A DNA stretch of 32,000 nucleotides. Source: Candidatus Iainarchaeum sp. GTDB lineage: Archaea > Iainarchaeota > Iainarchaeia > Iainarchaeales > 0-14-0-20-34-12. Below the pieces are notes generated by a model. That model was not told the DNA's origin. It did no database searches and worked only from the letters and a program-made list of their open reading frames with translations. The DNA is taken from NCBI GenBank assembly GCA_030649345.1, contig JAUSKK010000054.1:23228-55227 (forward strand). Reading direction: 5' to 3'. Position numbers and translations under genes: made by a program. This document shows positions 8,359 to 31,850 of this stretch, in pieces. The first letter of the stretch is position 1; every line of letters starts with the position of its first letter.

Positions 8359-11300
8359 TTATGCAAAATCCGTTACTTGAATTCGTACAGCTGTAGTGAA
8401 TGGATTAATTTGAATGACTAATTGTCTGTCCTGAATTTTTATTTGTGCTTGATTTCCTGAAGTAAATTGCAAGCTAACATTTTTGTAAAGTGTTTTGGCA
8501 AAATCTCTGGGCAAAATAATTTCCAAATAATTTACATTGGGTACATTTTTAGTTTCAAATACTTCCGTGATTCGTACTTGAACTGGTACAATTCCCTGCT
8601 GGTCAAATTCTTGTACTTTTTGTTTATTCCAATAAATTACTTTAACTCGATCCCATTCAATTTGGAATACTGTGAAGTCATTGCTTTTGCTTCCAGCCAA
8701 TAATCCGCCAATCATTCCTGCGCCTTGAAATTCAAATACAACTTCTTTTCCTGCTTGTGTTCCAATTCCAGTTATTTTACTAACTGCTGCTTGGGCTTGA
8801 TTGTCTGCCAATACTTTGCTGTGAAAACTAAAATCTGCTGCATGCAATACTTGAGGCGCAGTTCCTTCTTCTGGGAATGAACTTCCAAGATTGGCGGCTT
8901 GTCGTAAATCCATTTCTACAATATTTAAATTTTCCATTACTTTGGTATACCGTTTTAAGTGCAAAAGTTCTAAAGTTTCTCCGCTGCCTAAAGCTTCTCT
9001 TAATTCTGCTCTTCGTTCTGTACTAAATCCTTTAATAATTTCCAATAAATTTTCTCCAGCTGCATTACGCGTTTCCACTTCATCAATGACAGAACCAATT
9101 CTGCAATTGGGGCTGGCCTGCAATCCTCTTTGACATAAAGCATTTAGTTTTTGAACTATTTCTTCTAAAGGCCGAGCCATAGCTGCTTGGGTTTTTTGCA
9201 AAGCAGAATCTGTTCCAGTGATAACCAAAAATTGTTGTTCAACTTCACTGTTTAAAGCTTTAGCTGCAGCCCAGCTGGCTTCAATGCCGGGAGTACTGGC
9301 ATGCAAGGCTGGCTGAATATTGTTGACTTCCATCATTCGGTCGGTCAATTTTTTGACTGCTTGAATTAAAGCATAATCTTGATCACTTAACATTCCTTGC
9401 CTGTGCAGTACTTCTGCAGTGTCTGCAATTCTAGCCAGTCTTAAATTTTGCAATCGTAAAACATCTGCTCCAGCTACTTCAATTCCTTCTCCTGTAACCG
9501 GTACAATGGTTGGAATAAATTTTCCACTCGAATGCCGTACAAATCGATAGGTTGCTGCATTGGGTGCCAATTCTTCGAATACAATTCTTTTTCCTAAATC
9601 TGCTTGCAATGCAATTATGGGTTCGCCAAGTTTGTTTTTTAAAATTCCCACAACACTACAGGCAGCTCCAGCTGGAGTAATATTAATTACATTGGGTCCA
9701 GCACATTGTGTTTTGTTTCCAATTCCTACAACTTCAATGTACAAGTCTCTGGAAACTTCTTCAGGCGTTATCTGAATTACTGCAGACTCAATACTGTCTG
9801 CTTCAATGCCTCGAACCAATTCTCCGTCTGCATATATTTTATACATAGCCCATTCACTTTCTTTTCCAGCCCATTTCCCTAAACGCAGTTTGAATGGAAC
9901 AGATGTACTTATTTTTTTCCAAAATACTTGCCTGGTTCTTTTTACAGTTTCTGTTTTATATGTTAAAACTTCCATTGTGTTTTGAATTCCTTTCAAAAAA
10001 TTCATGCTGGCTTTTGCAATTATTGTTTTTCCAGTCTGCAAACTTTCTGCATTCAATACTTTTCCCAATAATACTTCAGTTACATCTACAAATGCAGTGC
10101 TTCCTTTTTGAATTCCTTTTCGTGCAAGCACAAATAATTCTTTTCCGAGTGTTCCAATTTTTGTTTTCAATAAAGCTTTTCCAGCTGTGCCCATTAAACG
10201 CGCAGCTGGCATAATAACTATTTCGCCGGCAATAATTCCAATTACATTCCAGCGCAAGTCTAAAAATGCTCTGGCGAATTCTGTTTCTGTATTGTGTTTT
10301 TCAATTGCTTGAACTAAATTTCCAGCCAATCCTTTGTTTCTATAAAATTCATTCAATTCACTGGTTTGTATTCCCAATGTTGCAGGATTGTATTCTGTTA
10401 AAAATTCTCCTGATTCTTCAATTCCTAAATCTGTACTTAATTTCAGCATATTTTTTGCTTGAGCAAATGCCAGCATTCCTTCTTTTTGTTTGTCTAAATT
10501 TTGGTTTTGATTCCATTGAGTTTGAACCTGAATCCATTTTTGCAAAATCGGATTATTTTCAGCCAATTCTTCCGGTAAATTTCGCTCCGGGAAAGGGCAA
10601 ACTGTAGTAATACACTTGTCATTAACTGCTGCAGATTGCACAAAATATGTATTTCCAGCTAATTTAACTTGAATCTCCAAATTAGCAATTTGATGGGTTA
10701 AAATGCTTTCCGTGGCTGTATTTGGAATCCATTGATTTGAATTGCTTAATTCTGTTTTGGACACAATTATAACTGGACTGGATTCAAACACAATACTTCC
10801 AGTGCTTTGTCCATTATCTGTTTGTTCAACTGCATTATAGAATTCAATTCCTGTGTCTGTGAATTTAATTTTTCCCAATAAAACTGTACTAGTATAGGTT
10901 CCTGCAGATTCACTCATTCCTTCAGCTGTCTCCAGGCCAATAGTCTGCGTGGAATGACTGGTTACAAATAATTCTTCGCCTGTATTAAAATTTCTTGCAA
11001 TATTTCTAGGTTTTTCAATGTTTGAAAAAGTTTGCGTTACTCCATCCAAATATTTTACCAAGCCGCCCAAGACATATGCACCGGAAGGAATTTTGCTTTC
11101 ATCTCTAGCTTGCTTTAGTCTAGCTGTTTTAATTTCAGTTTGAGCCGAACTTAAATTCAAATTTCGTTCATTCATTTGTCCAGCTAAACTTGTTTGAATT
11201 AATTTTAGTTTTATTTCCATTTGAACTAATTCTTTTCTTCGCAAGCCTTGAATGCTTTGCAAGTTTTCATTAATTCCAGTCAATTCTTCAATGGCATAAA

Positions 11301-14300
11301 ACCAATCGTATACTTTTCTATACTGTGTAAATGTTTCTGTTTGTTCTTGATCTAATTGAGCCAATCGAATTTTAGTAAATGTTAATTTTTCGCTGACTTC
11401 TTTTACTGCATTGTCTAAAGCCAAAGCTTGCAAATGTTGCCTGGCTTTTTCTCTGGCTTGCTTTTCCATTTCTGTTTGTTCAGAATCTTCTGCAGTTAAT
11501 CCAATAGTTATCAAATCTAAATTCAATTCCAATCGCACAGCATCTTGCTGGAGCTGAATATTTTGAGGATCCCGGTCCAATAAGTCTTGCGTAATTCTTA
11601 ATTCTTGTAACACAGAAACCCATTCTTTAACTTCCGGTAAAACTTCTTTGGTTTGTTTTAATTTTTCCAATACTGGATCAAATTTTTGAATCAATTTAGC
11701 ATAGCCTTGTTCGCTTTCATTTAATGCATTATTTAATTCAGTTTTAGCCTTGTTTAAAAATTCTGCAATTTTTGTTTTATTAACCCCAGTACCGGAACTT
11801 AAGTGATTCCAAAATTCTGAATTTTCCGAAAACTCTAAAAAACCCAAAGCATCTGGAAACAATTGATTCCAAGCAATGGCCTGCATTTGTTCTAAACCAT
11901 AATAAAATTCATTCAAATGTTTGACTTCTTGATCCACAGAATCCAAATCTTGTAAAAGTTTCAAAACCCAAATTTGTTGATTTTGTGTTGGATTATTTTC
12001 TAAATTTTTCATTTCTAAATCCAAAGCCTTTTGTCCTAAAATTTGTGCTTTTAGTAATTTTGTTTTTGCAAAACAATTATTGTAATAGAATTCTGCCAAT
12101 TTGGTTCCTTGCTTTAAATCAGTCCATTTCAAGCCTAAAAAGGTCTTTCCTGTAAATTCTGGAAATGCACATTCTGGTTTATGCAGTAAGTCTTGCTGGC
12201 TAATCATTTCCCAGACAAAGGCTTCTTTCGGCAATTCTTGCGTACGTACATTTTCTTGTTGAAAGTAATCAATGTATTCTGTGAATGCAGAACTAGAACT
12301 AATGGTGCTGAGTTCAGGTAATCCGGATGTCTTGTTGGCTTGCAAGAATAAACTTAAATCAATTCTAGCTCGTTCATTTATTTTTTGATATTCTTCGAAT
12401 GCCTGTTGGCTTTCTTGCGCATAACAATTAGCAACAATGTCTGTAGTCCATCCGTTTTCTTTTTGTTTTCTTAAACATTCATTGTTTCCTAAATTGATTT
12501 CAATTTCTTGTTTTCCTCCAAACAATAAACCATAATTTAAAATAATTTTTCCGGTTTTGGTTTCATTGAATCCAATTTTTTCTCTTCCTGTTGTTCTGGT
12601 AAATATTCGTTTTACAATCAAAGAATTTTCTTCTGGAATCCAGGTAATCCAATACAATCCTTTTCCATTTTGAGTTAAAACAATAAACGGCTGGCTTTGT
12701 GTTAATTGAATATTTTGAATACTTTGGTAACTGGTTCCATTTTTGGAGAACAAAGATTCATTGTCTAATTCAATTTTGCGCGCAGTGCTTTCCATTTCAT
12801 TTGATCGTGTGGGTTCACTCATTAGTTCTGGTGTTATATTTACATTTTTAATTTCAACAATATTTCCTTTTTTTTCCAGTACAAAATCCAATGCTCCAAA
12901 ATCTAAAGTATCGGTGACTGCATCATTGTCTTCTAAAGTGTATCTTTGCAATTCCACAATTCTGGAAACTTGTACATTGTTTATTCCAGCTTCAACTGTT
13001 GTATTGGTTCCAAGCAAATCTCCTGTACTGATTCGATCTTGTTCTGGTAAATAGTTTGTTCCATCTAACCAAACTTTTAATCTAAATGGTTCAATTTTTC
13101 CATTGACAGTTACATGCATTCCTTGAGCAATTCCTTGTTTGCTTTCCAGTGAAGGTGCTGTAGATTGCCATTCATTTCCTAGGTTTGGCAAAGTATTTGG
13201 GTTGGTGAATAAAAATTCTTGTTCAATTTCAGGTGCTTGCTCCGAGAAATAAATTGGCAAAGGCTGAGGCAAAGCATAGTTTGTTTGCAGTTGTTTTCTT
13301 GGAGTTAAGTCTTCGGCTTTAAATTCAATTTCTAAATACGGATTTTCAGTTTCCACTTGAGCTCGTTCTTCTTCGAAAGTTGCTTTAATTGTTCCAGAAT
13401 TGCCTGCTTTCCATTGTTTGTATTCTTGAAGTATTTCTTGTCTACAAGCTGCTTGGGTGCCTCCTTGAGGGCATGTATTGAAATCTGTACAATAAGGGCA
13501 TAATTTAAAAGCCAAACAATCAGCAATAATTCCTTCAGGAACTGTTTTTTCCCAATATCTGTCAGGTTCCGGTGTTCCACATTCAGTGAATACTTCTTTT
13601 TTGTACATGGAAGTTTCCCAGTAAGCTTCTTCGGTTGCTTTTCTTGTGCAGCTCATTGCTTGACCTGCATCTCTTAATCCATCCTGAGTTGCATTTCGGT
13701 CACATTCATCTGCTTTTTCTTCAATTTTTTTTCCCCATTCTCCAAAATCAGTATTTCCGTTTCGAATTTCTGTAACAGCTTCATTAATGGTTGTCATTAC
13801 TTGTGCAAATTCTGCTTCAGTATATCTATCAGATTCAATGGGTATTACTTTTTGTCCCACCTGCGCAGCAATACTGTCTGCAATATATCCGCCGAAATTA
13901 TTATTTGCTGAATTGCAGGACAAATTCAAGTTTTCAATATTTTGAACCATTTGCTCTAATTCAGCTCTATGTCTTACAGCCATTTCCAGATTGCTTAAAG
14001 GATAAATAAAAAGTGAGTGCAGGCAATTCTGTCCCCCGGCTAATTTAATTTCAACTGTTCCAAATGGATCATCCGGTGAATCCCCAGTAAAAATTACCGG
14101 ATCATCTAAAACAACAGTTGATTCTCCAGCTCCCGTAATTTGTACATCACTTGCTTTTTGCGCCAAACTTTTAGGAACTAAAATTAATAATCCAGTTCCA
14201 GGCACGTGTGTTTCTGGATTAAATGTAATGGTTTCAGTATGCTTTACTCCATCATCTGTAACTTGTACAATTCCATAATTGTTTTCATCTCCAATTGAAT

Positions 14301-14913
14301 ATTCAAATTCATACGGTTGAAACACCATGGCCGTTGTTGGAGTTTGTTCCAATAAAATTTTGGTTCCAAATTCTGCGCTTAATTTTGCATTCAGTCTTTC
14401 TTCGCTTTGATTTACTTTTGTACAATCCCATGCAATGCTTTCAAATTCTGCAAATTCTTCTACAATTTCCTGCAATTCATTTTGAGTTAATTCATCAAAA
14501 ACTGTTTTCGGCAAAAGCACAGCCATAGAGCAACCATTTCGATCTGCGCTTGAATATTCAATTCTGTAATCTAAATTTCCTTGATCGGTTTCAGACTTTA
14601 CAACAATGGGTTTGGTTAACAAAACGCTTTGTTTTTGGTTTCCCTGAAAACTTAAAGCACTTACTCTTGAAACCAACGAACTGGGAACAAAATTCAAGAA
14701 GACTAATTGTTCTGCGTTTTCTTGAATTGTGTATTTTTCAATATGCTGGTTTTGGTTTACTGAAATTGTTTTTTGAACTTCAATTCCAGCAAAATTCAAA
14801 GAATAGGTTTTCTCACTTAAAGTAGATTCAGGAACTATTGGTTTAGAATAAAATACAAACCAGCCGGCCAATACCAAAACTAAAATAATCCCAATTGCGA
14901 GTTTATTATTCAT
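8359..14913 (-). CDS. Giant secreted or membrane-anchored protein (2,184 aa), function unknown
   Basis: Complete ORF in the track. N-terminal signal/anchor MNNKLAIGIILVLVLAGWFVFYS. Cys-rich module around nt 13416-13701 (CTRKATEE...CLAFKLCPYCTDFNTCPQGGTQAAC). Long helical, coiled-coil-like Q/E/K/L-rich region around nt 10700-12300. Moderately hydrophobic segment NVIGIIAGEIVIMPAA at 10208-10260. The C-terminus has no hydrophobic sorting signal. No catalytic motif recognised. Confidence 0.85.
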   Translation of the reverse strand: MNNKLAIGIILVLVLAGWFVFYSKPIVPESTLSEKTYSLNFAGIEVQKTISVNQNQHIEKYTIQENAEQLVFLNFVPSSLVSRVSALSFQGNQKQSVLLTKPIVVKSETDQGNLDYRIEYSSADRNGCSMAVLLPKTVFDELTQNELQEIVEEFAEFESIAWDCTKVNQSEERLNAKLSAEFGTKILLEQTPTTAMVFQPYEFEYSIGDENNYGIVQVTDDGVKHTETITFNPETHVPGTGLLILVPKSLAQKASDVQITGAGESTVVLDDPVIFTGDSPDDPFGTVEIKLAGGQNCLHSLFIYPLSNLEMAVRHRAELEQMVQNIENLNLSCNSANNNFGGYIADSIAAQVGQKVIPIESDRYTEAEFAQVMTTINEAVTEIRNGNTDFGEWGKKIEEKADECDRNATQDGLRDAGQAMSCTRKATEEAYWETSMYKKEVFTECGTPEPDRYWEKTVPEGIIADCLAFKLCPYCTDFNTCPQGGTQAACRQEILQEYKQWKAGNSGTIKATFEEERAQVETENPYLEIEFKAEDLTPRKQLQTNYALPQPLPIYFSEQAPEIEQEFLFTNPNTLPNLGNEWQSTAPSLESKQGIAQGMHVTVNGKIEPFRLKVWLDGTNYLPEQDRISTGDLLGTNTTVEAGINNVQVSRIVELQRYTLEDNDAVTDTLDFGALDFVLEKKGNIVEIKNVNITPELMSEPTRSNEMESTARKIELDNESLFSKNGTSYQSIQNIQLTQSQPFIVLTQNGKGLYWITWIPEENSLIVKRIFTRTTGREKIGFNETKTGKIILNYGLLFGGKQEIEINLGNNECLRKQKENGWTTDIVANCYAQESQQAFEEYQKINERARIDLSLFLQANKTSGLPELSTISSSSAFTEYIDYFQQENVRTQELPKEAFVWEMISQQDLLHKPECAFPEFTGKTFLGLKWTDLKQGTKLAEFYYNNCFAKTKLLKAQILGQKALDLEMKNLENNPTQNQQIWVLKLLQDLDSVDQEVKHLNEFYYGLEQMQAIAWNQLFPDALGFLEFSENSEFWNHLSSGTGVNKTKIAEFLNKAKTELNNALNESEQGYAKLIQKFDPVLEKLKQTKEVLPEVKEWVSVLQELRITQDLLDRDPQNIQLQQDAVRLELNLDLITIGLTAEDSEQTEMEKQAREKARQHLQALALDNAVKEVSEKLTFTKIRLAQLDQEQTETFTQYRKVYDWFYAIEELTGINENLQSIQGLRRKELVQMEIKLKLIQTSLAGQMNERNLNLSSAQTEIKTARLKQARDESKIPSGAYVLGGLVKYLDGVTQTFSNIEKPRNIARNFNTGEELFVTSHSTQTIGLETAEGMSESAGTYTSTVLLGKIKFTDTGIEFYNAVEQTDNGQSTGSIVFESSPVIIVSKTELSNSNQWIPNTATESILTHQIANLEIQVKLAGNTYFVQSAAVNDKCITTVCPFPERNLPEELAENNPILQKWIQVQTQWNQNQNLDKQKEGMLAFAQAKNMLKLSTDLGIEESGEFLTEYNPATLGIQTSELNEFYRNKGLAGNLVQAIEKHNTETEFARAFLDLRWNVIGIIAGEIVIMPAARLMGTAGKALLKTKIGTLGKELFVLARKGIQKGSTAFVDVTEVLLGKVLNAESLQTGKTIIAKASMNFLKGIQNTMEVLTYKTETVKRTRQVFWKKISTSVPFKLRLGKWAGKESEWAMYKIYADGELVRGIEADSIESAVIQITPEEVSRDLYIEVVGIGNKTQCAGPNVINITPAGAACSVVGILKNKLGEPIIALQADLGKRIVFEELAPNAATYRFVRHSSGKFIPTIVPVTGEGIEVAGADVLRLQNLRLARIADTAEVLHRQGMLSDQDYALIQAVKKLTDRMMEVNNIQPALHASTPGIEASWAAAKALNSEVEQQFLVITGTDSALQKTQAAMARPLEEIVQKLNALCQRGLQASPNCRIGSVIDEVETRNAAGENLLEIIKGFSTERRAELREALGSGETLELLHLKRYTKVMENLNIVEMDLRQAANLGSSFPEEGTAPQVLHAADFSFHSKVLADNQAQAAVSKITGIGTQAGKEVVFEFQGAGMIGGLLAGSKSNDFTVFQIEWDRVKVIYWNKQKVQEFDQQGIVPVQVRITEVFETKNVPNVNYLEIILPRDFAKTLYKNVSLQFTSGNQAQIKIQDRQLVIQINPFTTAVRIQVTDFA

Positions 14914-18263: not shown

Positions 18264-20567
18264 ATGAAGATTGGTGGATTTGAAGTAGGAGACTGGGCAG
18301 TTAAAGAAGAAGCAGGAAAACGAAACTTAATTTTTGCATGTAGAGATTGTATTTATTCTGCCAATGTTGTCACAGATCAAGCTTGTAGATTTCATGTTCT
18401 AAAAATTTTATCCGAAGTTCAAGCAGACATTACTGTTTTATCCGAAGTCTATGAACGTGTTTATGATGAACTTCAAACTCAGCAATTATCTGAAGTTGGA
18501 CAATTATTAAACAAGTTTGCAATTGAAAGTGTTTGGGCTACCAATAATTTAGGCAATCCTTTGGGAAAAGCCGATGAAGCTTACTTAAGCAATCGGTACA
18601 GAATTGTGGTAACCATTGCACAAGATTTATTGGCGTTTGATCCAATTCGAGCTTACATTACTTGCTTGCAGGAATTACTGCGCGAACAAGGAAGATTTGA
18701 TAAAGGAAATGAAGAATACAAAAAAGGAAGCAGTGTTTTTTTAAAAACTTTAAATTATTTGCGTACAGAGTTTGAAAAAACTTTAATGATTAAAACTGCT
18801 AAAAAATTTCTCACACAATTGAAAGAAGTTCCAGACACCAAAGAAATTTATCAAACTATGCTGGAAGCTGAAGTCAAGCCTTCGTTTATTGGTTCTCGTT
18901 TATTGTTTGAAGAAGCTGAAGAATTAGAATTGTTAGACGAATATTCTGTTGGAAAAACTTCTGTGCAAATTTTCAGGCATCCGTTGCGTACAGAATCTTT
19001 GTATTTTATTAATCCTCCGGAATATTCTTTGAGTCCGGAAAAATATTTTGTTTTAAGTAAAACTAGAGAAATTGTTGCAGGATACAAACCTGGAAAATCC
19101 AGCTTAAGTGCTTTGTCTAAAGCGCGTACTTATTTTGAACGCATTTATCAGAGTACCATTGCAGATGTTGCTTTGCAAAATAATATTAAATTAGAAAAAG
19201 ATGAAGTCAAAGAACTCAGTGCCATTGTTGCACGTTATTCGATTGGTTATGGGATTTTAGAAATTTTGTTATCCGACCGAAGACTTACAGATATTTATAT
19301 TGATTCTCCGATTGGGCAAAATCCAATTTATGCTGTTCACTCAGATTACGGTCAAGTGAAAACCAATATTTTGTATACTGAAGGCGAAGCTCAATCCATG
19401 GTCACTAAACTAAGAGCTATGAGTGCACGGCCATTCGATGAAGCTCATCCAGTTTTAGACTTTGATTTGCCAGACTTAGATACTCGTGTGGCAACCATTG
19501 GACCGCCTTTGGCTACAGATGGAGTTGCGTTTGCTTTTCGTTTGCATAAATTAACTCCTTGGACTTTATCTCAATTCATTGACGTCAAATATTTGAATTC
19601 AACTGCAGCTGGCTTAATTTCGTTTTTCATTGACAACCAATTAACCATTATTGTTGCAGGTTCTCGTGGATCTGGAAAAACTTCTTTGTTGGGAGCTAAC
19701 TTATTAGAGATTCCAAAAAATACCAGAATATTAATTCAAGAAGACACATTAGAATTGCCAGTTCCGTACATGAAAAAAATTGGATTCAATGTCCAAAGAC
19801 TTAAAACGCAAAGTGCGATTGGCGGAGCAGCTTCCGAAATTGAAATGCCGGCCGATGAAGCTTTGCGGACAACTTTGCGTTTAGGAAATAGTGCCATTAT
19901 TTTGGGTGAAGTTAGAAGCAAAGAAGCCAAAACATTGTATGAAGCCATGCGAGTCGGATCAGCCGGTGGAATTGTCATGGGAACATTGCACGCTGACTCT
20001 GCCTATTCTGTCTGGGACAGAGTTGTTAATGATTTAGAGGTTCCGAATACTTCCTTTAAAGCCACAGACTTAATTATGGTTGCGCGTCCAATTCGTTTCT
20101 CAGGTTCATTGAAGAGTGCCAGAAGAATTGTTCAAATTACAGAAGTCAAAAAACATTGGGTGGATGATCCAGAACGCGAAGAAGGACTGTTGGACTTAAT
20201 GAGTTATGATGCTAAAAAAGATTCTTTGGAATTAATGGAAGACAATTTGAAGGAATCAGAATTATTTGAACGCGTCCGAAAAATGTCAGGCTTAAACTTT
20301 GATGAAATTTGGGCTGAAATTAAAATGCGCGGAGAATCCAAACAATATTTAGTAGATCTTAAACGCGAAAAAAAATTGCCTCAATTATTGGAAGCCGAAT
20401 ATACTTCTTTGGCCAATGATAAATGGCTGTTACTTAAAGAAAAGTTTTTAGAAGAAAATACAAAATTGGACCATGCAGAAATTTTAGGTGAATGGAAAAA
20501 CTGGGTGAATACTTCTTTGCTGAAACGAGTAACTGGTTCCATAAAACCGGAGAAAGGTAAAGAATAA
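18264..20567 (+). CDS. Archaeal type IV pilus/archaellum-type assembly ATPase (FlaI / VirB11 / GspE superfamily), enlarged to 767 aa
   Basis: Walker A AGSRGSGKTS. ILIQEDTLELP (Asp box / Walker B region). RLGNSAIILGEVR. His box GTLHADSA. About 330 aa of unrecognised N-terminal sequence and a K/E-rich C-terminal tail. A probable SD, GGGTG, lies 5 nt upstream. Confidence 0.85.
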   Translation: MKIGGFEVGDWAVKEEAGKRNLIFACRDCIYSANVVTDQACRFHVLKILSEVQADITVLSEVYERVYDELQTQQLSEVGQLLNKFAIESVWATNNLGNPLGKADEAYLSNRYRIVVTIAQDLLAFDPIRAYITCLQELLREQGRFDKGNEEYKKGSSVFLKTLNYLRTEFEKTLMIKTAKKFLTQLKEVPDTKEIYQTMLEAEVKPSFIGSRLLFEEAEELELLDEYSVGKTSVQIFRHPLRTESLYFINPPEYSLSPEKYFVLSKTREIVAGYKPGKSSLSALSKARTYFERIYQSTIADVALQNNIKLEKDEVKELSAIVARYSIGYGILEILLSDRRLTDIYIDSPIGQNPIYAVHSDYGQVKTNILYTEGEAQSMVTKLRAMSARPFDEAHPVLDFDLPDLDTRVATIGPPLATDGVAFAFRLHKLTPWTLSQFIDVKYLNSTAAGLISFFIDNQLTIIVAGSRGSGKTSLLGANLLEIPKNTRILIQEDTLELPVPYMKKIGFNVQRLKTQSAIGGAASEIEMPADEALRTTLRLGNSAIILGEVRSKEAKTLYEAMRVGSAGGIVMGTLHADSAYSVWDRVVNDLEVPNTSFKATDLIMVARPIRFSGSLKSARRIVQITEVKKHWVDDPEREEGLLDLMSYDAKKDSLELMEDNLKESELFERVRKMSGLNFDEIWAEIKMRGESKQYLVDLKREKKLPQLLEAEYTSLANDKWLLLKEKFLEENTKLDHAEILGEWKNWVNTSLLKRVTGSIKPEKGKE

Positions 20568-20584: not shown

Positions 20585-22891
20585 ATGGGTAAAGATATTC
20601 GTTACAAAAAAGGAATCAGTCCAGGAGAATTGTATTCTGAAATTATTGTTGAACGCTCGTTCGAAGAAGAAGATGACGAAAAATTAGTTAAAGAAAAACC
20701 CAGTGTATTTGTTTCTTTTTGTAAACGTTTGTATGCTTTTGCTCCTTCTTTGGGGCAAAATGCAAAATTTACTCCCGAGCTCCAAGAAGCTGTGCGTTTT
20801 CTAAATTGGGATTTAAAGCCAGCAGAATTTAGTGCAGCTTCCAAGTTAGCATTAATTATTTCTTTATTGATTGGATTAATCATTGCAGTTATTGCCATTA
20901 ATTTAGGTCCAGTTTCAGACTTTTTGAAAGGAGCCATTGGAGACTTAGGTCCAATGGTTGTATTTGCCGTTCCTTTAGTTTTGGCTTTGTATATTACCAA
21001 TTTTATTCAACAATTTCCATTGAATGCTGCTTTAATGGAACAAAGAAAAGCTTTGACTTATGTCCCAGAAATTATCGGCTATCTAATCATGTCTTTGAAA
21101 TTAACTCCGAATTTAGAAAAAGGTTTAGAGTTTGCCAGCAAAAACGGAAAAGGAAAAATTTCTGAAGATTTCAAAAAAATATTATGGGACATTCAATTGG
21201 GAACCTATGATACTGTGGCTGAAGCTTTAGATGAACTGGCATACAAATGGGGAAAATACAGTTCTGAATTCAAGCAAGCCTTAATGATGGTTCGTGCTTC
21301 CATTCTGGAAGAAACCGAAGCCAAACGATATGCTTTATTGGATAAGACCATGGAAAATATTTTGGCCAGTATTAAAGACAAAATGGAACAATATGCACGC
21401 GATTTATCTCAGCCTTCCATTGTTTTGTTTTACATTGGAGTATTGCTTCCATTAATTTTAATTATAATTCTTCCAGTTGGTTCTGCTTTTACAGGAAGTC
21501 CTTTGGCTCAGCCTTTGGTTTTAATTTTAATTTATAATGTTGGAATTCCTTTGTTTGCCTATTTTTATGCTTTAAAAGTAATTCGAACACGACCTCCAAC
21601 TTACGAGCCTCCAATAATTCAAGACAATTATCCAGGCTTGCCGAAGAAATGGAAAATGAAATTAGGCACAACTGAAATGGATGTGCGTTTTTTGGTTGCA
21701 ATTGTTTTTGTTTTAGGAATTATTTTTTCAGTTGGTTTATCTACTCAAGGTTTGCCGCCGAAATTTTTAATGCCGGATCAAACAGAACAACAAATTGTAG
21801 CTGCAGATAAAAGTTATGCAGAAGTTTTAGACCGAGCTGGACGAACCCCAGACTATTTTGATGACACTGGAACTTTATATCAGCAATATGTCCGGCAAGG
21901 ATTAAGTGAAGAAAAAGCTTTAGATAAAGTTAAACTCGATCGCGCTCAATTTTTTAATACAGCCGAAAACGATGTAACTCCCAGTTTATTGGTGTTTGGT
22001 GTAATCATTACTTTTGCAATTTGTATTTATTTATTTTTTCATTACAGTACAGTGTACAAACGAAAAGCTCAAATGGAAATCATGGAATTGGAATCAGAGT
22101 TTAAAGATTCATTGTATGTTTTGGCTTCTCGTTTAGGTGAATCCAGGCCAGTCGAAGAAGCTTTAGAGCATACGCGTAGATTTTTGCCGAATCTTAAAAT
22201 TTCCGAACGAGTCTTTGGTAAAACCATTGACAATATTCGAATGATGAGCCTGCCTTTAGAGCAAGCAGTATTCCATCCAGTGTATGGTTCTTTGGTCAAT
22301 GTTCCGTCGAAGATTGTTCAAGGCGGAATGAAAATCATGGTAGACTCAGTTCAATTAGGAGTGAATGTAGCAGCCAAAACTTTAATTTCTTTGTCTTTGC
22401 AGTTAGAGAATTCAGAAAAAGTCAATAAAGTCATGCGGGATTTAGTTTCAGAAATTACGAATATGATGATTACCATGTCGACTTTTATTGCACCAGTTGT
22501 CTTGGGAATTACAACTGCTTTACAAAAAGTAGTCATGGTTACTTTAGCTTCCATTATTGGCTCTAACATTTCCAACGAACCTCAAGGTTCTTCTTTGAAT
22601 TTACCGCCGGGTGTTCCTTTAGGTTCTGATATTAGTTCAGGTGTGAGCGGAAATTTTTTGAAGCCAGATGCATTCGGTTCCATGGTAACTCCTTTGCAGT
22701 TTTTATTAATTGTCGGCTTTTATGTAATTGAATTAGCTGTGATTATGATTTTTTATGTAACCAAAGTCCAAGAAGACAATGACTTAATGTTTAAAATGAA
22801 TTTAGCCAAATTTTTGCCCATTTCTATGGTGGCATTTGTGGCTGCTGTAATTGCATCCAATTTAGTGGTTGCAGGATTCGGCGGAGGATAA
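20585..22891 (+). CDS. Polytopic pilus platform protein (FlaJ/TadC/PilC-like, T2SS-F superfamily), 768 aa
   Basis: Sits immediately downstream of the ATPase (17-nt gap). Many hydrophobic helices alternate with soluble loops, which is the usual partner arrangement for FlaI-type ATPases. I could not verify a strong sequence motif by eye. Confidence 0.65.
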   Translation: MGKDIRYKKGISPGELYSEIIVERSFEEEDDEKLVKEKPSVFVSFCKRLYAFAPSLGQNAKFTPELQEAVRFLNWDLKPAEFSAASKLALIISLLIGLIIAVIAINLGPVSDFLKGAIGDLGPMVVFAVPLVLALYITNFIQQFPLNAALMEQRKALTYVPEIIGYLIMSLKLTPNLEKGLEFASKNGKGKISEDFKKILWDIQLGTYDTVAEALDELAYKWGKYSSEFKQALMMVRASILEETEAKRYALLDKTMENILASIKDKMEQYARDLSQPSIVLFYIGVLLPLILIIILPVGSAFTGSPLAQPLVLILIYNVGIPLFAYFYALKVIRTRPPTYEPPIIQDNYPGLPKKWKMKLGTTEMDVRFLVAIVFVLGIIFSVGLSTQGLPPKFLMPDQTEQQIVAADKSYAEVLDRAGRTPDYFDDTGTLYQQYVRQGLSEEKALDKVKLDRAQFFNTAENDVTPSLLVFGVIITFAICIYLFFHYSTVYKRKAQMEIMELESEFKDSLYVLASRLGESRPVEEALEHTRRFLPNLKISERVFGKTIDNIRMMSLPLEQAVFHPVYGSLVNVPSKIVQGGMKIMVDSVQLGVNVAAKTLISLSLQLENSEKVNKVMRDLVSEITNMMITMSTFIAPVVLGITTALQKVVMVTLASIIGSNISNEPQGSSLNLPPGVPLGSDISSGVSGNFLKPDAFGSMVTPLQFLLIVGFYVIELAVIMIFYVTKVQEDNDLMFKMNLAKFLPISMVAFVAAVIASNLVVAGFGGG

Positions 22892-22893
22892 TT

Positions 22894-23004
22894 GTGAATT
22901 CAAAATTTGCAATTTTGAAAATTTGTGAAAATTTAAGAGATTTCCACAATTATAAAATTCAGAAGAATTTTATATATTTAAAATTCCAGGGGAATTTTAA
23001 ATGA
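22894..23004 (+). repeat. Copy A of a conserved pre-pilin intergenic module. It carries the TATA-like box ttttatatatttaaaa (22968-22983) and can also be read as a 36-codon small ORF.
   Basis: Near-identical to 28826-28963: gaattcaaaat..attttgaaaatttgtgaaaattta.g.gatttc...cacaattataaaatt....aattttatatatttaaaattccagg. It starts 2 nt after the platform gene's stop, and its TGA overlaps the pilin ATG (ATGA). Confidence 0.7.
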
Positions 23005-23498
23005 ATTCGCGCGGTCAAGCTGGAGCAGTTTTTCGTTTTCTAGTTGAAGTCATTATGGGTGCTTTAATTTTAGCCATTATTTTGGGAGCAGTCAATTATT
23101 TTTCGCAAGCTCGCATTGACGTAAGTGAACGCAGACTCAGCAATGCGTTTGAAAATGCATTTGAAAAAGTCATTGGAAATCCAGATCCAACAACTCAAAG
23201 TGTAGTACTTGAAAAAGACTTGTTAATGCAGCCCATTATTTATGGAACCAAACAATTTTCTTCAGGCTATGATATTGAAGATGTTTGTATTGATTTTATT
23301 TCTAGTTCTAATAAAGTATTTCAAGTTGGCCAAGGTAATAAAACCATTGAAATCAAGCAAAGCATTCAAACCAATGTATTCATGCAATGTTTTGCAGCTT
23401 CAGCAGTTCCAATTAGCTCTCCTTCGGTTTCAGATCCAACAAATTGTCCGATTTATTGCATTATTTCTTTTGGAAAACCTTTGCCTTTGCCGGCATAG
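23001..23498 (+). CDS. Archaeal type IV pilin-like protein with class III signal peptide (165 aa)
   Basis: MNSRG|QAGAVFRFLVEVIMGALILAIILGAV: short basic leader, [KR]G-Q cleavage motif, then a hydrophobic helix. The C-terminal end is Cys-containing (CPIYCIISFGKPLPLPA). Confidence 0.75.
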   Translation: MNSRGQAGAVFRFLVEVIMGALILAIILGAVNYFSQARIDVSERRLSNAFENAFEKVIGNPDPTTQSVVLEKDLLMQPIIYGTKQFSSGYDIEDVCIDFISSSNKVFQVGQGNKTIEIKQSIQTNVFMQCFAASAVPISSPSVSDPTNCPIYCIISFGKPLPLPA

Positions 23499-23546
23499 TT
23501 ATTCAATCCAGTCATCTCATTTTTGCCATTATTTACGATATGTTTA

Positions 23547-23567
23547 AATTCTGTAATTTACAGAATT
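23547..23567. promoter_or_regulatory. Perfect 10-bp inverted repeat (aattctgtaa t ttacagaatt), candidate operator for the Doc cassette
   Basis: The palindrome is read directly from the sequence and ends 5 nt before the doc ATG. It overlaps a TATA-like tttaaatt. Confidence 0.45.
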
Positions 23568-23572
23568 AGTGC

Positions 23573-23935
23573 ATGGCCAAGATTTTTGCCAAAACACTTT
23601 CCAAAGAAGTAATTGTGAATGTAAATAAACAGTTTACAGACGGAAGTATTCGAAGCGAAGGAGAAATTGATTTTATTGTATTTAGAGTTGCTAATGTTCG
23701 AGGCATTGATCAAAAAGCAGCAACTTTGTTAATGGAAATTGCCAGAAGGCATGCCTTTGTTGACGGAAACAAGCGAACTGCTTTTGAATGCATGATAACG
23801 TTTTTAGAATTGAATGGAAAGAAATTAATTGTAGGAGAAACCTCTAGATTTAATGTAGTGGTCTGGAGTGTGAAACCTAAAACAAAATTGGACGAAATTG
23901 TAACCTGGATTGCCAATCACACAAGGAAAGAATGA
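23573..23935 (+). CDS. doc: Doc (death-on-curing) family Fic-fold toxin (120 aa)
   Basis: Doc-type variant of the Fic motif, HAFVDGNKRTAF (H-x-F-x-D-[AG]-N-K-R). The size and helical context are typical of Doc. Confidence 0.8.
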   Translation: MAKIFAKTLSKEVIVNVNKQFTDGSIRSEGEIDFIVFRVANVRGIDQKAATLLMEIARRHAFVDGNKRTAFECMITFLELNGKKLIVGETSRFNVVVWSVKPKTKLDEIVTWIANHTRKE

Positions 23936-23940
23936 TTTTT

Positions 23941-24069
23941 ATGCAAATAATTAAAATTAAAGGAAAACGTGAACCCATTACTTTAGCTGAATGGAAAGAC
24001 GTCAAACATATTGTAAAAGCTCATTTAAAAGAATACAAAGACTTTTACGCTCAGCTGGCTGAACTATAA
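23941..24069 (+). CDS. 42-aa ORF co-oriented with doc and 5 nt downstream of it. Candidate cognate antitoxin in reversed gene order.
   Basis: Hand translation: MQIIKIKGKREPITLAEWKDVKHIVKAHLKEYKDFYAQLAEL. It falls below the track's length cutoff. No family recognised. No Phd-like gene lies upstream of doc. Confidence 0.35.
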   Translation: MQIIKIKGKREPITLAEWKDVKHIVKAHLKEYKDFYAQLAEL

Positions 24070-24071
24070 AC

Positions 24072-24110
24072 TGTATTATTTCCTTTGGCAGACCTTTACC
24101 TTTGCATTGA
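24072..24110 (+). pseudogene. Orphan duplicate of the 3' end of the pilin gene at 23001-23498
   Basis: tgtattatttcctttggcagacctttacctttgcattga reads CIISFGRPLPLH*. The intact gene end at 23457-23498, tgcattatttcttttggaaaacctttgcctttgccggcatag, reads CIISFGKPLPLPA*. There is no upstream pilin coding sequence attached. Confidence 0.7.
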
Positions 24111-24185
24111 TTACCGCAATTTATTTAAATTCAAGAAACCCAATAATACTAAGTTTTTTGTTTAAATAAAAAGGTGATTTTTTTA

Positions 24186-24710
24186 ATGAATTCAAGAGGA
24201 CAGGCATTTTCAACATTTCAATTGCTGATTGCTGCAATTGTAGCTATTGCTATTTTGGCAATTTTATTCCAGATTATTGGAATCATTCCAGGCATTGGAC
24301 AACAAGAACCTAGTTCGAATGCAGCTAATTTAGTGAAAGACTTAGTCAACAAACCCTATACTCCGAAAACCAGTTCTCAAGTGACTTTCAAAAGCGGAGA
24401 CAGTATTAATGTCAAAGCTATTGCAGCAGCCAGTCAAGCTGGTGCAACAGAAGAAAATATTATTTTAAGCTTAGGAGACTTTGAAGGAACCACTGGATTT
24501 GAAGGTAGCGGATCACTGATTACTTACACGGCTGGTTCATCTAAAAATGTAAAATTATGGGCAGTTTGCTCTCCTAAAGGTGAAATCGGTACTACGGTAC
24601 AAAGTTTAGGTCCATCTGAAAAAATTAGAGCTGCTAGTGAATCATGTACTACTGACAGCGATGAAGACATCTGTTGTTTAATTGCTTTGCGAACCACAGG
24701 CTCTGGCTAA
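24186..24710 (+). CDS. Archaeal type IV pilin-like protein with class III signal peptide (174 aa from the ATG at 24186)
   Basis: MNSRG|QAFSTFQLLIAAIVAIAILAILF. The SD-like AGGTGA lies about 9 nt upstream of the ATG at 24186. The track's GTG start at 24174 is probably an over-extension. C-terminal Cys motif DICCLIALR. Confidence 0.8.
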   Translation: MNSRGQAFSTFQLLIAAIVAIAILAILFQIIGIIPGIGQQEPSSNAANLVKDLVNKPYTPKTSSQVTFKSGDSINVKAIAAASQAGATEENIILSLGDFEGTTGFEGSGSLITYTAGSSKNVKLWAVCSPKGEIGTTVQSLGPSEKIRAASESCTTDSDEDICCLIALRTTGSG

Positions 24711-24731
24711 ACGAAGTTTAGCCTTTTTTTT
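24705..24731 (+). terminator. Stem-loop plus T8 tract at the end of the pilin gene
   Basis: ggctaaac gaa gtttagcc is a perfect 8-bp stem containing the TAA stop. It is followed by tttttttt and a second T-run. Oligo-T is the archaeal termination signal. Confidence 0.55.
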
Positions 24732-24751
24732 CTTTTTCATTATTCTTTACT

Positions 24752-24856
24752 GCAATTAAAACGAAAACGTTTTAATGCTGGACTAAGCCCTATTTGATCA
24801 CCGCAATTAAAACCCTGGGTTTTAATGCGCACTAAAAGCATTGCTTTTAGTTGCGG
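24752..24856. repeat. Three related palindromic hairpin elements
   Basis: gcaattaaaacg-aaa-cgttttaatgc (24752-24778), gcaattaaaac-cctgg-gttttaatgc (24803-24828) and gcgcactaaaagc-att-gcttttagttgcg (24827-24856). The arms share the core GCAAyTAAAAs. Confidence 0.6.
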
Positions 24857-24967
24857 AAATACCGGAAACGTAGTCTCGAATTGTTTTTAAACAAAGTCCA
24901 ATTAATATATCTTGAACTGGCATAAATTAGTGTGATATGGCAAAGCAAGAATAAAACAGGCGAAACT

Positions 24968-25816
24968 ATGGATAAAAATATTATTACAAAGCTTCAGCAA
25001 ACATTTGAAGATTGCGTTCAAACAGCAGGTGGATTAGACTTTTGGTTTGCGCGAGACTTGCAGAAACTTCTTGGCTATGATAAATGGGAAAACTTTATCA
25101 AGGTTATTGAAAAAGCAAAAACCGCCTGTAAGAATTCAGGCTATGAAATAAATGACCATTTTCTTGATTCCAGGAAAAAGGTCGAGATTGGATCTGGGGC
25201 AGAAAGGGAAATTGAAGACGCAATGCTTACACGATATGCGTGTTACATGGTTGCACAAAATGGAGATTCCAGAAAAGAAGAAATTGCATTTGCGCAAAGC
25301 TATTTTGCAGTTCAGACAAGAAAACAAGAGTTAATTGAGCAAAGAATAGCATTACAAGAAAGATTTGAAGCAAGAAGTAAATTCATTGCATCCGAAACAG
25401 AATTATCTAAATTAATCTACGAACGCGGGGTTGATAATGCTGGTTTTGCAAGAATACGAAGTAAAGGTGACCAAATTCTTTTTGGTGGTTATACAACTGC
25501 TCAAATGAAAAATAAACTGGGTGTTTCTGAAACTAAACCGCTTGCAGACTTTCTTCCGACAATAACTGTTACAGCAAAGAATTTTGCCACAGAAATAACA
25601 AACTTTAATTTAAAAAAAGAAGAACTAAAAGGAGAAGAATCCATAACCAAAGAACATATGAAAAATAATGCCGGTGTTCGCGGATTGCTGAAGAAAAGAG
25701 GAATAAAACCAGAAGAACTGCCTCCTGAAGAAGATATTAAAAAATTAGAACGAAAAGTTAAGAAAGACGAACAGAGACTTGCAAATAATTCTAGTGAAAA
25801 GAAAAAGCTAAAATAA
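24968..25816 (+). CDS. dinD: DNA damage-inducible protein D (DinD)-like protein (282 aa from the ATG at 24968)
   Basis: From memory, it resembles E. coli DinD along its length: WFARDLQKLLGYDKWENFIKVIEKAKTACKNSGYEINDHF, LTRYACYMVAQNGDSRKEEIAFAQSYFAVQTRKQE, and PEELPPEEDIKKLE near the C-terminus. The track's GTG start at 24932 is probably an over-extension. Confidence 0.75.
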   Translation: MDKNIITKLQQTFEDCVQTAGGLDFWFARDLQKLLGYDKWENFIKVIEKAKTACKNSGYEINDHFLDSRKKVEIGSGAEREIEDAMLTRYACYMVAQNGDSRKEEIAFAQSYFAVQTRKQELIEQRIALQERFEARSKFIASETELSKLIYERGVDNAGFARIRSKGDQILFGGYTTAQMKNKLGVSETKPLADFLPTITVTAKNFATEITNFNLKKEELKGEESITKEHMKNNAGVRGLLKKRGIKPEELPPEEDIKKLERKVKKDEQRLANNSSEKKKLK

Positions 25817-25909
25817 AGCTCTAAATTGCCTTTAAGTTAAGTACTTTTTCAGCTGATGTTTGTGAATTTTCAAAACCTTTAAATAAAACAATGCTTGCTA
25901 TTATAGTAT

Positions 25910-26089
25910 ATGGTATTGAAGCTTTCAAAAACTGAATTCGAACAGTTACAGGAAGAATTGCATGAAATTAGAATGGAACGCTTAAGTTTCACTCTCCGTT
26001 TTTGCACATGGATTCACAATCGAATGCATCCAGATATGTTTAAGCGTTATCCACAAAAATTTCTTCCAGAACCAATTGCATGTGATTAA
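25910..26089 (+). CDS. Hypothetical 59-aa protein
   Basis: Hand translation: MVLKLSKTEFEQLQEELHEIRMERLSFTLRFCTWIHNRMHPDMFKRYPQKFLPEPIACD. A TATA-like ctttaaataaaa lies about 25-30 nt upstream. Its stop (26087-26089) sits 1 nt before the ATG of the next gene. It is one codon short of the track cutoff. Confidence 0.35.
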   Translation: MVLKLSKTEFEQLQEELHEIRMERLSFTLRFCTWIHNRMHPDMFKRYPQKFLPEPIACD

Positions 26090-26090
26090 A

Positions 26091-26288
26091 ATGAACTTCA
26101 AAAACTTAATTGAAAAAATTAAAACTTTCTTCAAAAGCGAACGCGCTCAAAACGAATGGAGCACAGTTTACTTATTGATTGTTTTAATTATTGCCGCGCT
26201 GGTATTAATTGCTGTAGTCAAACCCATGTTCCAACAATCCCAAGATGTAGTGGCTAGAACAACTCAAAGTGTCCAGCAAGGCCCGTAA
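26091..26288 (+). CDS. Small class III signal-peptide pilin (65 aa), candidate major pilin
   Basis: MNFKNLIEKIKTFFKSERA|QNEWSTVYLLIVLIIAALVLIAVVKPMF. This is the layout of short archaeal pilins: basic leader, [KR]A-Q, then a roughly 22-aa hydrophobic helix and a short tail. The track's TTG start at 26076 is probably an over-extension. Confidence 0.7.
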   Translation: MNFKNLIEKIKTFFKSERAQNEWSTVYLLIVLIIAALVLIAVVKPMFQQSQDVVARTTQSVQQGP

Positions 26289-30806: not shown

Positions 30807-31850
30807 TTATTCCTTTTTTCCCAATTTTTTTAATTTATCGAATAATCCTTCGCGTACTTTTTTTGTTTCTTGTTTTTGTTCTTCTCGTTTTTGAAATTCT
30901 TGAACTTTTTCCGGGATTCGTTCGCTGATGGGTTCGTCTATAGTTATTTCTTCCAATCCGCTTTTTAACTTTTTGACATTGATTCTGTCTTTTTTAATTG
31001 TTTTTCCTTGGTTAATTTCTTGAATTCTTTGGGTTTCATTTTCTGACATTTCTTTTTCTTCAATGCCCAAGGCATGCTGTATTTCCCAAGGCTTGGTTTG
31101 TCCTTCGGTTTTTGTTTGGCTCATTTTTTGAAGTTTTTCTCTTAATTTTCGCAATACTTCCAGTTTTTCTTCAGTACTTTTTTCTGCCGATTGTTCTTCA
31201 ACTGGATTAACTGGTTCTACTTTGGGCTCAATTTTCTTTTCAGGAAATGCTTTAGTCTCTATTTTTTGAATGGATTCTTCTGGTTTTTCTTTTACTTTCA
31301 ATCGTTCTTCCAATTCTTTTTCCAATAATTTTTGTTCGTCTTGCAGATTTTCGCTGGCTTGTTTTTGGGTTTCTTCTTTTTGTTTTCGTTCTTCTATTCT
31401 TTTTTGTTTTTCAGTTTCTTTTCGAAATTGTTCTTCTTCCATGGATTTTTTTGCTTTTTCTAAAATGATTTGTTTGATTTTTTCTTTTTCTGTTAATTCT
31501 GGAATTTCTTCTTGGTATTGAATTTTTTGTTTGGGTTCATATTTTTGTTCTGTTTTTTGAACTGTTTGTTCTGTTTTTGGTTTAATAAATTGAATAAATG
31601 TAATGACTACTAGTAAAGCGCTGGCCAGTCCTGTGATTGCAATCCAGCTGGTTTTCCAGTTTAATGCAAAATCCAGCATATATCCTAAAACTAAAATGAC
31701 TCCTGAAATTACTAAACCATAGCCTGCACTGTAAATGATTTTTGCTGAGTTGGATTTTTTAAATTCCATTTTTCGCAAGACCAACCAGCCCAACGACGTG
31801 CTTCCCAAGACCAAGTAGGCCATTAAAGCAAGTTCAAATAGGGTAGGCAT
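30807..31850 (-). CDS. Membrane-anchored (about 3 TM helices) E/K-rich coiled-coil-like protein (347 aa)
   Basis: N-terminal helices LALMAYLVLGSTSLGWLVL, IIYSAGYGLVISGVILVLGYML and WIAITGLASALLVVITFIQFI, then about 250 aa of K/E/Q-rich sequence. It lies 4 nt upstream of the zinc-ribbon gene and is probably co-transcribed with it. Confidence 0.65.
   Translation of the reverse strand: MPTLFELALMAYLVLGSTSLGWLVLRKMEFKKSNSAKIIYSAGYGLVISGVILVLGYMLDFALNWKTSWIAITGLASALLVVITFIQFIKPKTEQTVQKTEQKYEPKQKIQYQEEIPELTEKEKIKQIILEKAKKSMEEEQFRKETEKQKRIEERKQKEETQKQASENLQDEQKLLEKELEERLKVKEKPEESIQKIETKAFPEKKIEPKVEPVNPVEEQSAEKSTEEKLEVLRKLREKLQKMSQTKTEGQTKPWEIQHALGIEEKEMSENETQRIQEINQGKTIKKDRINVKKLKSGLEEITIDEPISERIPEKVQEFQKREEQKQETKKVREGLFDKLKKLGKKE

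Follow-up and report, generated by a model that had tools for sequence, protein, structure and literature searches.

We describe here a small toxin gene cassette in a 32,000-nucleotide stretch of DNA (hereafter the window, meaning the whole stretch that was analysed) from a metagenome-assembled genome (MAG) of Candidatus Diapherotrites (Iainarchaeota, DPANN). The cassette lies at 23508-24071, in a pilus locus between two pilin-like genes (pilin 1 and pilin 2), and carries doc, for a toxin of the Fic/Doc superfamily, followed by a 42-codon open reading frame (ORF), orf42. On both sides it is bounded by copies of the 3′ end of pilin 1. In three related genomes pilin 2 comes directly behind pilin 1, and the same cassette is found in other genomes flanked by repeats of tRNA-Tyr gene ends. 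We think that 23508-24071 is probably, though far from certainly, a self-contained, autoregulated doc-orf42 cassette that was integrated by conservative recombination at the end of pilin 1.

A direct repeat of the pilin 1 end flanks the cassette

The direct repeat joins 23457-23490, at the end of pilin 1 (copy A), with 24072-24105, behind orf42 (copy A′), and 29 of its 34 nucleotides are identical. Its local alignment score of 24 compares with 11.8 ± 1.4 (maximum 17) when the downstream 2 kb is Markov-shuffled 300 times, placing it about 9 standard deviations above expectation. It is also the top of 1250 flank pairs across the window, taken as 100 nt each, 560 nt apart and equally spaced (mean 9.3, standard deviation 2.2, next best 20), and a degenerate 34-mer with up to 3 mismatches finds only these two sites in the window. 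The duplicated pilin 3′ end that an initial annotation of this DNA had reported, naming alignment as the check, is thus real and its similarity significant. The same annotation saw weaker similarity running on past the repeat (“ttattcaat” against “ttaccgcaat”); a gapped alignment does extend to about 23510 and 24122, some 10 nt past the stops, and this extension is weak (39 of 56 columns) but plausible.

The repeat keeps the coding frame, with copy A translating as CIISFGKPLPLPA and copy A′ as CIISFGRPLPLH, each followed by a stop codon. The orphan frame opens only at 24063, three codons earlier, behind a TGA at 24060-24062. A and A′ differ at five sites, at four of them by a synonymous change in the third codon position, a bias with P = 0.012 if the orphan alone decayed and P = 0.07 if the functional copy drifts too. 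This suggests that A and A′ diverged as coding sequence, one copy having arrived with the cassette.

That the repeat is a chance similarity or an artefact of assembly we consider scarcely credible. In favour of chance stand the AT-richness of the sequence and the score of 20 that some other flank pairs of the window reach, but neither the distance from the shuffles, nor the first rank among 1250 placements, nor the coding register favours chance. An independent Logan assembly (L001, from SRR13727527; loci from other assemblies carry the prefix L throughout) is 100% identical over the 1,001 nt from 23300 to 24300 and has the window's gene order over 8.7 kb, which makes an assembly chimera unlikely.

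The cassette is an insertion between two pilin-like genes

Using the TadC-like membrane protein encoded upstream as the anchor for retrieving orthologous loci from other genomes, we found three (L002, L003 and L006) in which pilin 1 is followed directly by pilin 2, 57-78 nt away, without doc. Since these three relatives have pilin 1 directly before pilin 2, the unit in the window is an insertion and not a wrecked second pilin. Behind the orphan stop there are 75 nt before pilin 2 begins, and as this matches the 57-78 nt of the relatives, the orphan keeps the native intergenic region. The insertion left pilin 1 at full length and pilin 2 with its native upstream region, neither pilus gene being damaged. 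All of the genomes with empty sites are distant relatives, their TadC-like proteins being 48-53% identical, and the one close pilin-1 relative (54% identity) lies on a 565-nt contig. The C-termini of the pilin-1 orthologues are CVVSFGKPFE, CIVSFEKELKKP, CIVSFGLELK, CIVSFGQDLQ and CAISFGKKLPILPPTN, the first three being gene ends, directly before the stop codon, in the set formed by L002, L003 and L006.

The limits of the cassette are equally discrete. In a blastn comparison with 11 loci from other genomes (L105-L113 stood outside it), DNA similarity begins at 23535 (23538 in L015), 38 nt before the doc ATG; it ends at the orf42 stop, 24069, in five loci and 6-22 nt short of this, inside the end of orf42, in the others. 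The initial annotation had taken the cassette for an insertion, and the empty sites in L002, L003 and L006, together with these limits at 23535-24069, bear that out.

The same geometry is found at tRNA-Tyr genes

Four other loci (L008-L010 and L015) have a tRNA-Tyr(GTA) gene, interrupted by an intron of 136-218 nt, immediately in front of the cassette, and an orphan T arm plus acceptor end, 21-27 nt long, begins 8-17 nt past the orf42 stop. These orphans score 21-23, against 8-10 ± 1 for shuffles. The arrangement is the same in L109/L110, with a more decayed and shorter repeat (12 nt exact), while in L113 the cassette stands between two tRNA-Tyr fragments that match the variant tRNA-Tyr of that genome (GCAACTCTGGGAGGGG...). 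As the L113 fragments carry their own genome's variant, the tRNA-Tyr repeats are host-derived. A tRNA-Tyr fragment is found on the left only in L106, and on the right only in L016 and L017.

The most extensive case is L011 (JGI Ga0117905_1010239, 1-6526), where at least five Fic/Doc/PemK units without an integrase form an array. They encode a Fic protein, doc-orf42 together with three more genes, Fic again in two units, and a ribbon-helix-helix (RHH)-PemK pair. Fragments of the tRNA-Tyr 3′ end, 20-25 nt long, separate the units, at 11, 623, 2321, 4843 and 5981, all intergenic and on one strand, and GGAGGCGGGA is present in four exact copies where about 0.01 would be expected (our own estimate from 10-mer frequency).

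Time and again the tRNA-Tyr repeats begin within the T arm and stop 1-3 nt beyond the tRNA, and the orientation of the cassette relative to the repeat is identical in every case. The geometry of the window is that of the tRNA-Tyr loci: the intact gene end adjoins the cassette leader from the left, the orphan follows on the right, and the cassette points in the same direction. It is because of this shared geometry that we read A and A′ as a footprint of attL/attR type. The claim that the 3′ end of the target had been duplicated at the flanks of the cassette thus gains independent parallels at tRNA-Tyr. The window itself contains no tRNA-Tyr fragment at up to 1 mismatch, and no tRNA at all, even with introns allowed.

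A synteny of DUF2666, PAP2 and tRNA-Tyr genes recurs among these loci, and in L014 that tRNA has no doc behind it; this conserved neighbourhood behaves as an integration hot spot. Located 79 nt downstream of the doc-less tRNA-Tyr of L014, at 8556-9434 on the minus strand, is an rve-family (DDE integrase/transposase) gene, and no orphan tRNA fragment was found past it.

The introns of Diapherotrites tRNA-Tyr(GTA) genes are 101-218 nt long and lie at position 38 (L008 4648-4938, L015 2733-2941, L014 8280-8477 and L113 966-1139). ARAGORN finds these genes only when introns are allowed; in L008 and L014, for which it was run in both modes, the default missed them. At L007, which is the same site as L008 in another sample, the repeat is present and ARAGORN calls no tRNA-Tyr. 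The T arm of the intact tRNA differs between the two (GGGGCAAACACTGG in L007, at about 4915-4941, against GGTGCAAATCCTGG in L008) and the orphan copies are identical; the difference may reflect polymorphism, damage to the tRNA or a fault of assembly. In the flanks of L095-L104, AGGCTTGGC stands right after the stop of the upstream gene and again 13 nt past the orf42 stop; this repeat is borderline by chance and could be a decayed footprint of like kind at the end of another protein gene.

A doc toxin gene with a small downstream partner

Between the repeat copies there is one unit, consisting of a TATA box, a 21-nt palindrome, doc and the 42-codon ORF. The palindrome, a perfect 10-1-10 inverted repeat (AATTCTGTAATTTACAGAATT, 23547-23567), ends 5 nt upstream of the doc ATG, and the motif TTTAAATTCTGTA[AG][AT]TTACAGAAT is nearly invariant in all copies of the cassette. 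Its position between TATA box and start codon would let a bound repressor keep a leaderless transcript from being initiated. The initial annotation had described a palindromic operator, doc and a 42-codon ORF between the repeat copies; all three are there, with the orf42 start now placed from homologues at ATG 23941 (the mechanical ORF, from 23932, has 45 codons) and the role of the palindrome as operator a presumed one.

Doc carries the motif HAFVDGNKR, which fits the HxFx(D/E)GNKR consensus of the Fic/Doc superfamily. It matches Pfam PF02661 (E = 1e-8; 36.2 bits against a cut-off of 24) and TIGR01550 DOC_P1 (51.2 bits against 38.65), and the family profile matches the PDB Doc chains 9vzc, 3k33 and 3dd7. 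By these matches it belongs to the death-on-curing toxins of the Fic/Doc superfamily. Doc of phage P1 is a Fic-fold, kinase-type toxin of translation elongation, and by family membership the Doc of the window would be a toxin of this type too.

The start of orf42 lies 5 nt past the doc stop, and 2 nt separate its own stop from the repeat. Gene calls exist for 29 close cassette loci, and in 26 of these orf42 is called beside doc; in the other three, L095, L107 (whose contig ends at doc) and L111, it is not called. Its 30 homologues are 62-86% identical and all unnamed. The predicted fold is a β-hairpin plus helix (AF2 pLDDT 82), and neither Pfam, NCBIfam nor PDB fold comparison gave a match or an informative structural neighbour. 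From its conserved place beside doc we suggest that orf42 encodes the candidate antitoxin and co-repressor, being the obvious neutraliser.

Distribution and age of the cassette family

More than 190 Doc homologues were found, the best 120 of them at 66-86% identity, and the named sources of these best 120 are Diapherotrites, “archaeon” or Micrarchaeota MAGs. On this sampling the Doc clade is seen almost only in MAGs of Diapherotrites and other DPANN. A metagenome scan with the Doc alignment yielded close cassettes at 3 of 80 loci, the pattern DGNKRTA[FY] being too general; the other Doc relatives that it returned are no more than 48% identical, bar two short partial matches. The neighbours of the cassette vary, and include PAP2 with a methyltransferase, a Fic/toxin-antitoxin island, a HAD hydrolase, a chaperonin, a PHP phosphoesterase and IF5A, among others. 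The doc-orf42 module belongs to a Diapherotrites-wide family of small units without an integrase and with att-like footprints, and among the sampled loci it mostly lies with tRNA-Tyr fragments.

The GC content of doc (0.353) and that of its third codon positions (GC3, 0.289) both match the neighbouring genes. Between copies, third-codon-position identity is 38-54%, which we read as probable saturation, and amino-acid identity is 73-83%. This contrast, with the host-like GC and GC3, argues that the module is old and strongly constrained within the archaeal group. A recent foreign or bacterial import was rejected on the same grounds, with doc and orf42 both host-like in GC and GC3 and saturated at third positions. 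The initial annotation had found a bacterial-type module unusual inside an archaeal pilin array, a view that fits neither a Doc clade seen almost only in Diapherotrites and other DPANN nor a base composition equal to that of the neighbours; what is unusual is the pilin site in place of tRNA-Tyr. Carriage by viruses was also rejected, the operator, the Doc peptide and back-translated VDGNKRTAFE(S/C)M patterns being absent from IMG/VR.

How the cassette may have been integrated

In the reading that we favour, the cassette would have been integrated, in this lineage, about 10 nt behind the stop codon of pilin 1. The incoming cassette DNA, probably a circle, would have carried a short segment that recombined with the pilin 3′ end in the Campbell (attP x attB) manner, yielding an attL-like copy that keeps pilin 1 whole and an attR-like orphan joined to the native upstream region of pilin 2. 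As the cassette is without a recombinase of its own, the enzyme would be supplied in trans, either as an integrase encoded elsewhere or as the host homologous-recombination machinery. The recombination would have been guided by homology, through the host machinery or a loosely specific integrase like Int-pTN3, or else the cassette would have acquired a pilin end beforehand. Once inserted, the module may be kept by addiction, Doc being neutralised by the 42-aa partner, and the pair of them would repress their own promoter at the palindrome.

Several observations weigh against integration of this kind. The cassette encodes no recombinase, a scan of some 20 window ORFs found none, and within 4 kb of the other copies none was seen except the rve-family gene of L014. 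The pilin repeat, with both copies aligned, resembles three tRNA-Tyr att segments no better than background. Unbroken identity between A and A′ spans 8 nt at most, little for homologous recombination if the copies did not diverge later, and the argument from synonymous bias has five substitutions only. The cassette contexts of L014, L105, L108 and L111 show no flanking repeat, and the empty sites are all those of distant relatives. One variant, in which the pilin gene would be a secondary site for an enzyme specific for tRNA-Tyr, was rejected because of the background-level alignments to the tRNA-Tyr att segments and the absence from the window of tRNAs and, at up to 1 mismatch, of tRNA-Tyr fragments.

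A serious rival, although we think it improbable, is a one-sided homologous recombination completed by an illegitimate join (homology-facilitated illegitimate recombination) with linear DNA of a related strain. The donor would already have had pilin 1 plus cassette; a homologous crossover upstream, in pilin 1 or the TadC-like gene, would be followed by joining of the cassette end 42 nt before the recipient's pilin stop, so that A is the donor end and A′ the recipient's. Such an event needs no integrase, which fits the absence of one from the cassette and the scanned ORFs; it would make the synonymous A/A′ differences a divergence between orthologues, and it accounts both for the differing repeat lengths among sites and for the native intergenic region behind A′. 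It leaves unexplained, however, how the donor itself first acquired a cassette behind pilin 1; genomes resembling such a donor are not known, and the recurrent end points at tRNA-Tyr look site-specific and not like random illegitimate joints.

Two further explanations are less likely than this rival. The initial annotation spoke of an insertion that duplicated its target, and a true target-site duplication, with transposase-like staggered cuts about 35-50 nt apart, gap repair and 15% later divergence, would indeed place direct repeats of host sequence against the cassette on both sides; the co-variation of the tRNA fragments with each genome's tRNA-Tyr likewise makes the repeats host-derived. 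Yet the cassette has neither terminal inverted repeats nor a transposase, and repeat lengths from 12 to about 50 nt among sites (12-27 nt at those other than the window) are unlike a fixed stagger. The substitutions, moreover, are biased to synonymous sites, and it is integrases, not transposases, that typically return to one site such as the tRNA-Tyr 3′ end. Recombination across a common segment agrees better with the varying repeat lengths, the missing inverted repeats and the mostly synonymous differences. We therefore rate a transposase-like duplication as unlikely and do not follow the annotation in that sense of the phrase. It had also offered replacement of most of a second tandem pilin paralogue, the orphan being all that is left of a pilin-1 copy after arrival of the cassette removed or replaced its body. 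Pilin paralogues in tandem are indeed present in these loci (L006 has two pilin-2 genes) and the orphan retains an open 13-codon frame with its stop, but there is no remnant beyond these 13 codons, and L002, L003, L004 and L006 are each without a second pilin-1 gene, as is every relative seen. The deletion end points would, in addition, have to match the conserved limits of the cassette exactly, and the same cassette has the same geometry at single-copy tRNA-Tyr. A lost paralogue is accordingly very unlikely.

Beyond the single event in the window, we put forward tentatively, as something that may well prove wrong, that Diapherotrites host an undescribed class of minimal integrase-less cassettes (doc-orf42, other Fic, PemK and VapBC), which would spread by capture and duplication of host-gene 3′ ends in homology-guided, trans-catalysed events. 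Their usual target would be the intron-bearing tRNA-Tyr, where arrays would be built, with protein genes such as pilin used as well. Such cassettes would not be tied to one attachment sequence and could resemble integrons in function, with host-gene ends replacing attC.

Relationship to known mobile systems

The kind of system is already known, namely integration into gene 3′ ends and cassettes like the cis-mobilizable elements (CIMEs). Further elements at gene 3′ ends are e14 and phage 21 in icd of E. coli, and ICESt1/3 in fda. Like the cassette of the window, elements integrated in this way are flanked by repeats of the target's 3′ end, with an intact gene at attL and an orphan at attR, and their two copies may differ synonymously, one having come with the element. 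Unlike them, the insert of the window is 0.56 kb, has no integrase, sits at a pilin-like target, and has an att-like segment without dyad or hairpin. Set against what marks attL and attR, the window has flanking repeats with the gene restored and, in distant relatives, an empty site, and its cassette has no integrase of its own. Archaeal integrases as a rule enter the 3′ parts of tRNA genes and restore the gene, although protein-coding targets are also recorded, and tRNA genes, intron-bearing ones included, are the usual archaeal integration targets (PMC8371274).

CIMEs are att-flanked units whose integration genes were lost or never present, and accrete in tandem at one att site (PMC5704250). 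The doc cassettes are alike in their attL/attR-type bounds, in having no integration genes and in building up in tandem at one tRNA (L011, L113), and a toxin-antitoxin cargo could stabilise such units. The window cassette is itself an att-flanked unit without integration genes, and no cognate integrase is found among the scanned window ORFs. CIMEs, however, are described as decayed integrative and conjugative or integrative and mobilizable elements of firmicutes, whereas doc-orf42 is a minimal, intact and recurring module in a DPANN setting, in which decay is not evident.

Integron gene cassettes, those of archaeal integrons included, are small, promoter-bearing and often of toxin-antitoxin type, and stand in arrays without a recombinase of their own (PMC9668308); the paper mentions neither Diapherotrites nor Iainarchaeota. 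The doc cassettes share with these their small size, toxin-antitoxin content, promoters, arrays and lack of a recombinase, but have no attC-like imperfect hairpin (the orf42 stop and the repeat are 2 nt apart) and no IntI, and their repeats are host-gene fragments. Single-strand folding of the two junctions, each on either strand, found no structure (z-scores -0.16 to 0.52). An integron cassette was rejected as an identity for the unit, there being no attC-like hairpin, no Rfam match and no integrase in the scanned window ORFs. A transposon or insertion sequence was likewise rejected: the inverted-repeat score is 7, against 7.9 ± 1.6 for shuffles, and there is no transposase and no fixed-length duplication.

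Int-pTN3 is an archaeal tyrosine recombinase that joins any pair of similar sequences, with activity shown on segments of at least 104 bp in Thermococcales (PMC5495485). An enzyme of the pTN3 type could explain att-like footprints at targets as unrelated as tRNA-Tyr and pilin; none was found in the scanned window ORFs.

As a toxin-antitoxin module, doc-orf42 resembles phd-doc of phage P1 in the HxFx(D/E)GNKR motif, a toxin of about 120-126 aa, the TIGR01550 match, a small adjacent partner and a promoter palindrome. It differs in that the toxin comes first and the 42-aa partner is unlike Phd/YefM, with no Pfam or NCBIfam family and no PDB fold match. Of the hallmarks of a type II system it thus has the small partner in the same operon, and not an antitoxin of known family upstream of the toxin.

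The surrounding pilus locus

The features of the locus are collected in Table 1. A row of small proteins encoded in the window have MNSRGQ-type N-termini followed by hydrophobic helices. None of the pilin-like proteins matches a pilin profile in Pfam or NCBIfam, and the label “pilin”, a putative one, comes from this motif and the neighbouring pilus genes.

Table 1. Features of the pilus locus and of the doc-orf42 cassette, in window coordinates
Feature	Position	Strand	Basis
Pilus assembly ATPase	18264..20567	+	Pfam T2SSE, E 1e-19
TadC/T2SSF-like polytopic membrane protein	20585..22891	+	Weak PF00482 T2SSF match; orthologues 46-53% identity in L002-L006
Pilin-like gene 1	23001..23498	+	ORF; N-terminal MNSRGQ then hydrophobic helix; C-terminal C-[IV]-[IV]-S-F-G motif
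Repeat copy A (attL-like): functional last 13 codons of pilin 1, stop and ~9 nt beyond; core 23457-23490	23457..23507	+	
Variable cassette leader; weak “tatttttgcc” motif common to some other copies	23508..23534	+	Flank comparison; boundary approximate
Conserved core of doc-orf42 cassette	23535..24069	+	blastn, 72-74% identity to 11 loci of other genomes
TATA-like TTTAAAT (23543-23549) overlapping palindrome (23547-23567)	23543..23567	+	Presumed promoter/operator, leaderless transcript
doc, Fic/Doc-family toxin, 120 aa	23573..23935	+	PF02661, TIGR01550, PDB Doc chains
orf42, 42-aa partner, candidate antitoxin, downstream of doc	23941..24069	+	Conserved neighbour of doc
Repeat copy A′ (attR-like), orphan pilin-1 3′ end; pseudo-ORF 24072-24110	24072..24122	+	
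Native spacer from pilin 1 to pilin 2 (75 nt), 3′ of orphan	24111..24185	+	Spacing as in L002, L003, L006
Pilin-like gene 2 (MNSRGQAFSTFQLLIAAIVA...)	24186..24710	+	ORF; DNA similarity to L006 pilin-2 genes

Relative to L002, L003 and L006 the pilin array holds a second insertion, at 24711-26090. It contains an equivalog of DNA-damage-inducible protein D (NF008573, 355 bits; Bro-N domain) at 24932/24968-25816 and a 59-aa ORF at 25910-26089, and no repeat above chance flanks it. The start region of a small membrane-protein gene (ATG 26091) is partly duplicated, and rearranged, some 120-170 nt upstream; this duplicate (25924-25975 against 26064-26121, 77-80% over 25-30 nt) may be due to chance in AT-rich DNA. 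In the related genome L006, the same pilus locus has taken up what appears to be a further mobile element, a TnpB-like 413-aa ORF (identified from its sequence) at 12363-13604, between the TadC-like gene and the pilin-1 orthologue.

Elsewhere in the window there are minus-strand ORFs of 2184 aa (8359-14913) and 347 aa (30807-31850), the latter without a Pfam family. Flank pairs 660 nt apart near 10476 and 30826 score 20 in the window-wide control, which suggests internal repeats there.

Implications for gene movement in DPANN archaea

To our knowledge, almost nothing is known of gene movement in DPANN archaea, whose genomes are small and mostly metagenomic. A single, sharply bounded toxin-antitoxin module that recurs in many contexts with att-like footprints gives a testable handle on a DPANN integration system. 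From the analysis there also emerges a conserved Doc toxin whose gene order is reversed, together with a new family of 42-aa partners, and the insertion indicates that operons for surface structures, such as the pilus locus described here, can take up selfish cassettes without loss of function.

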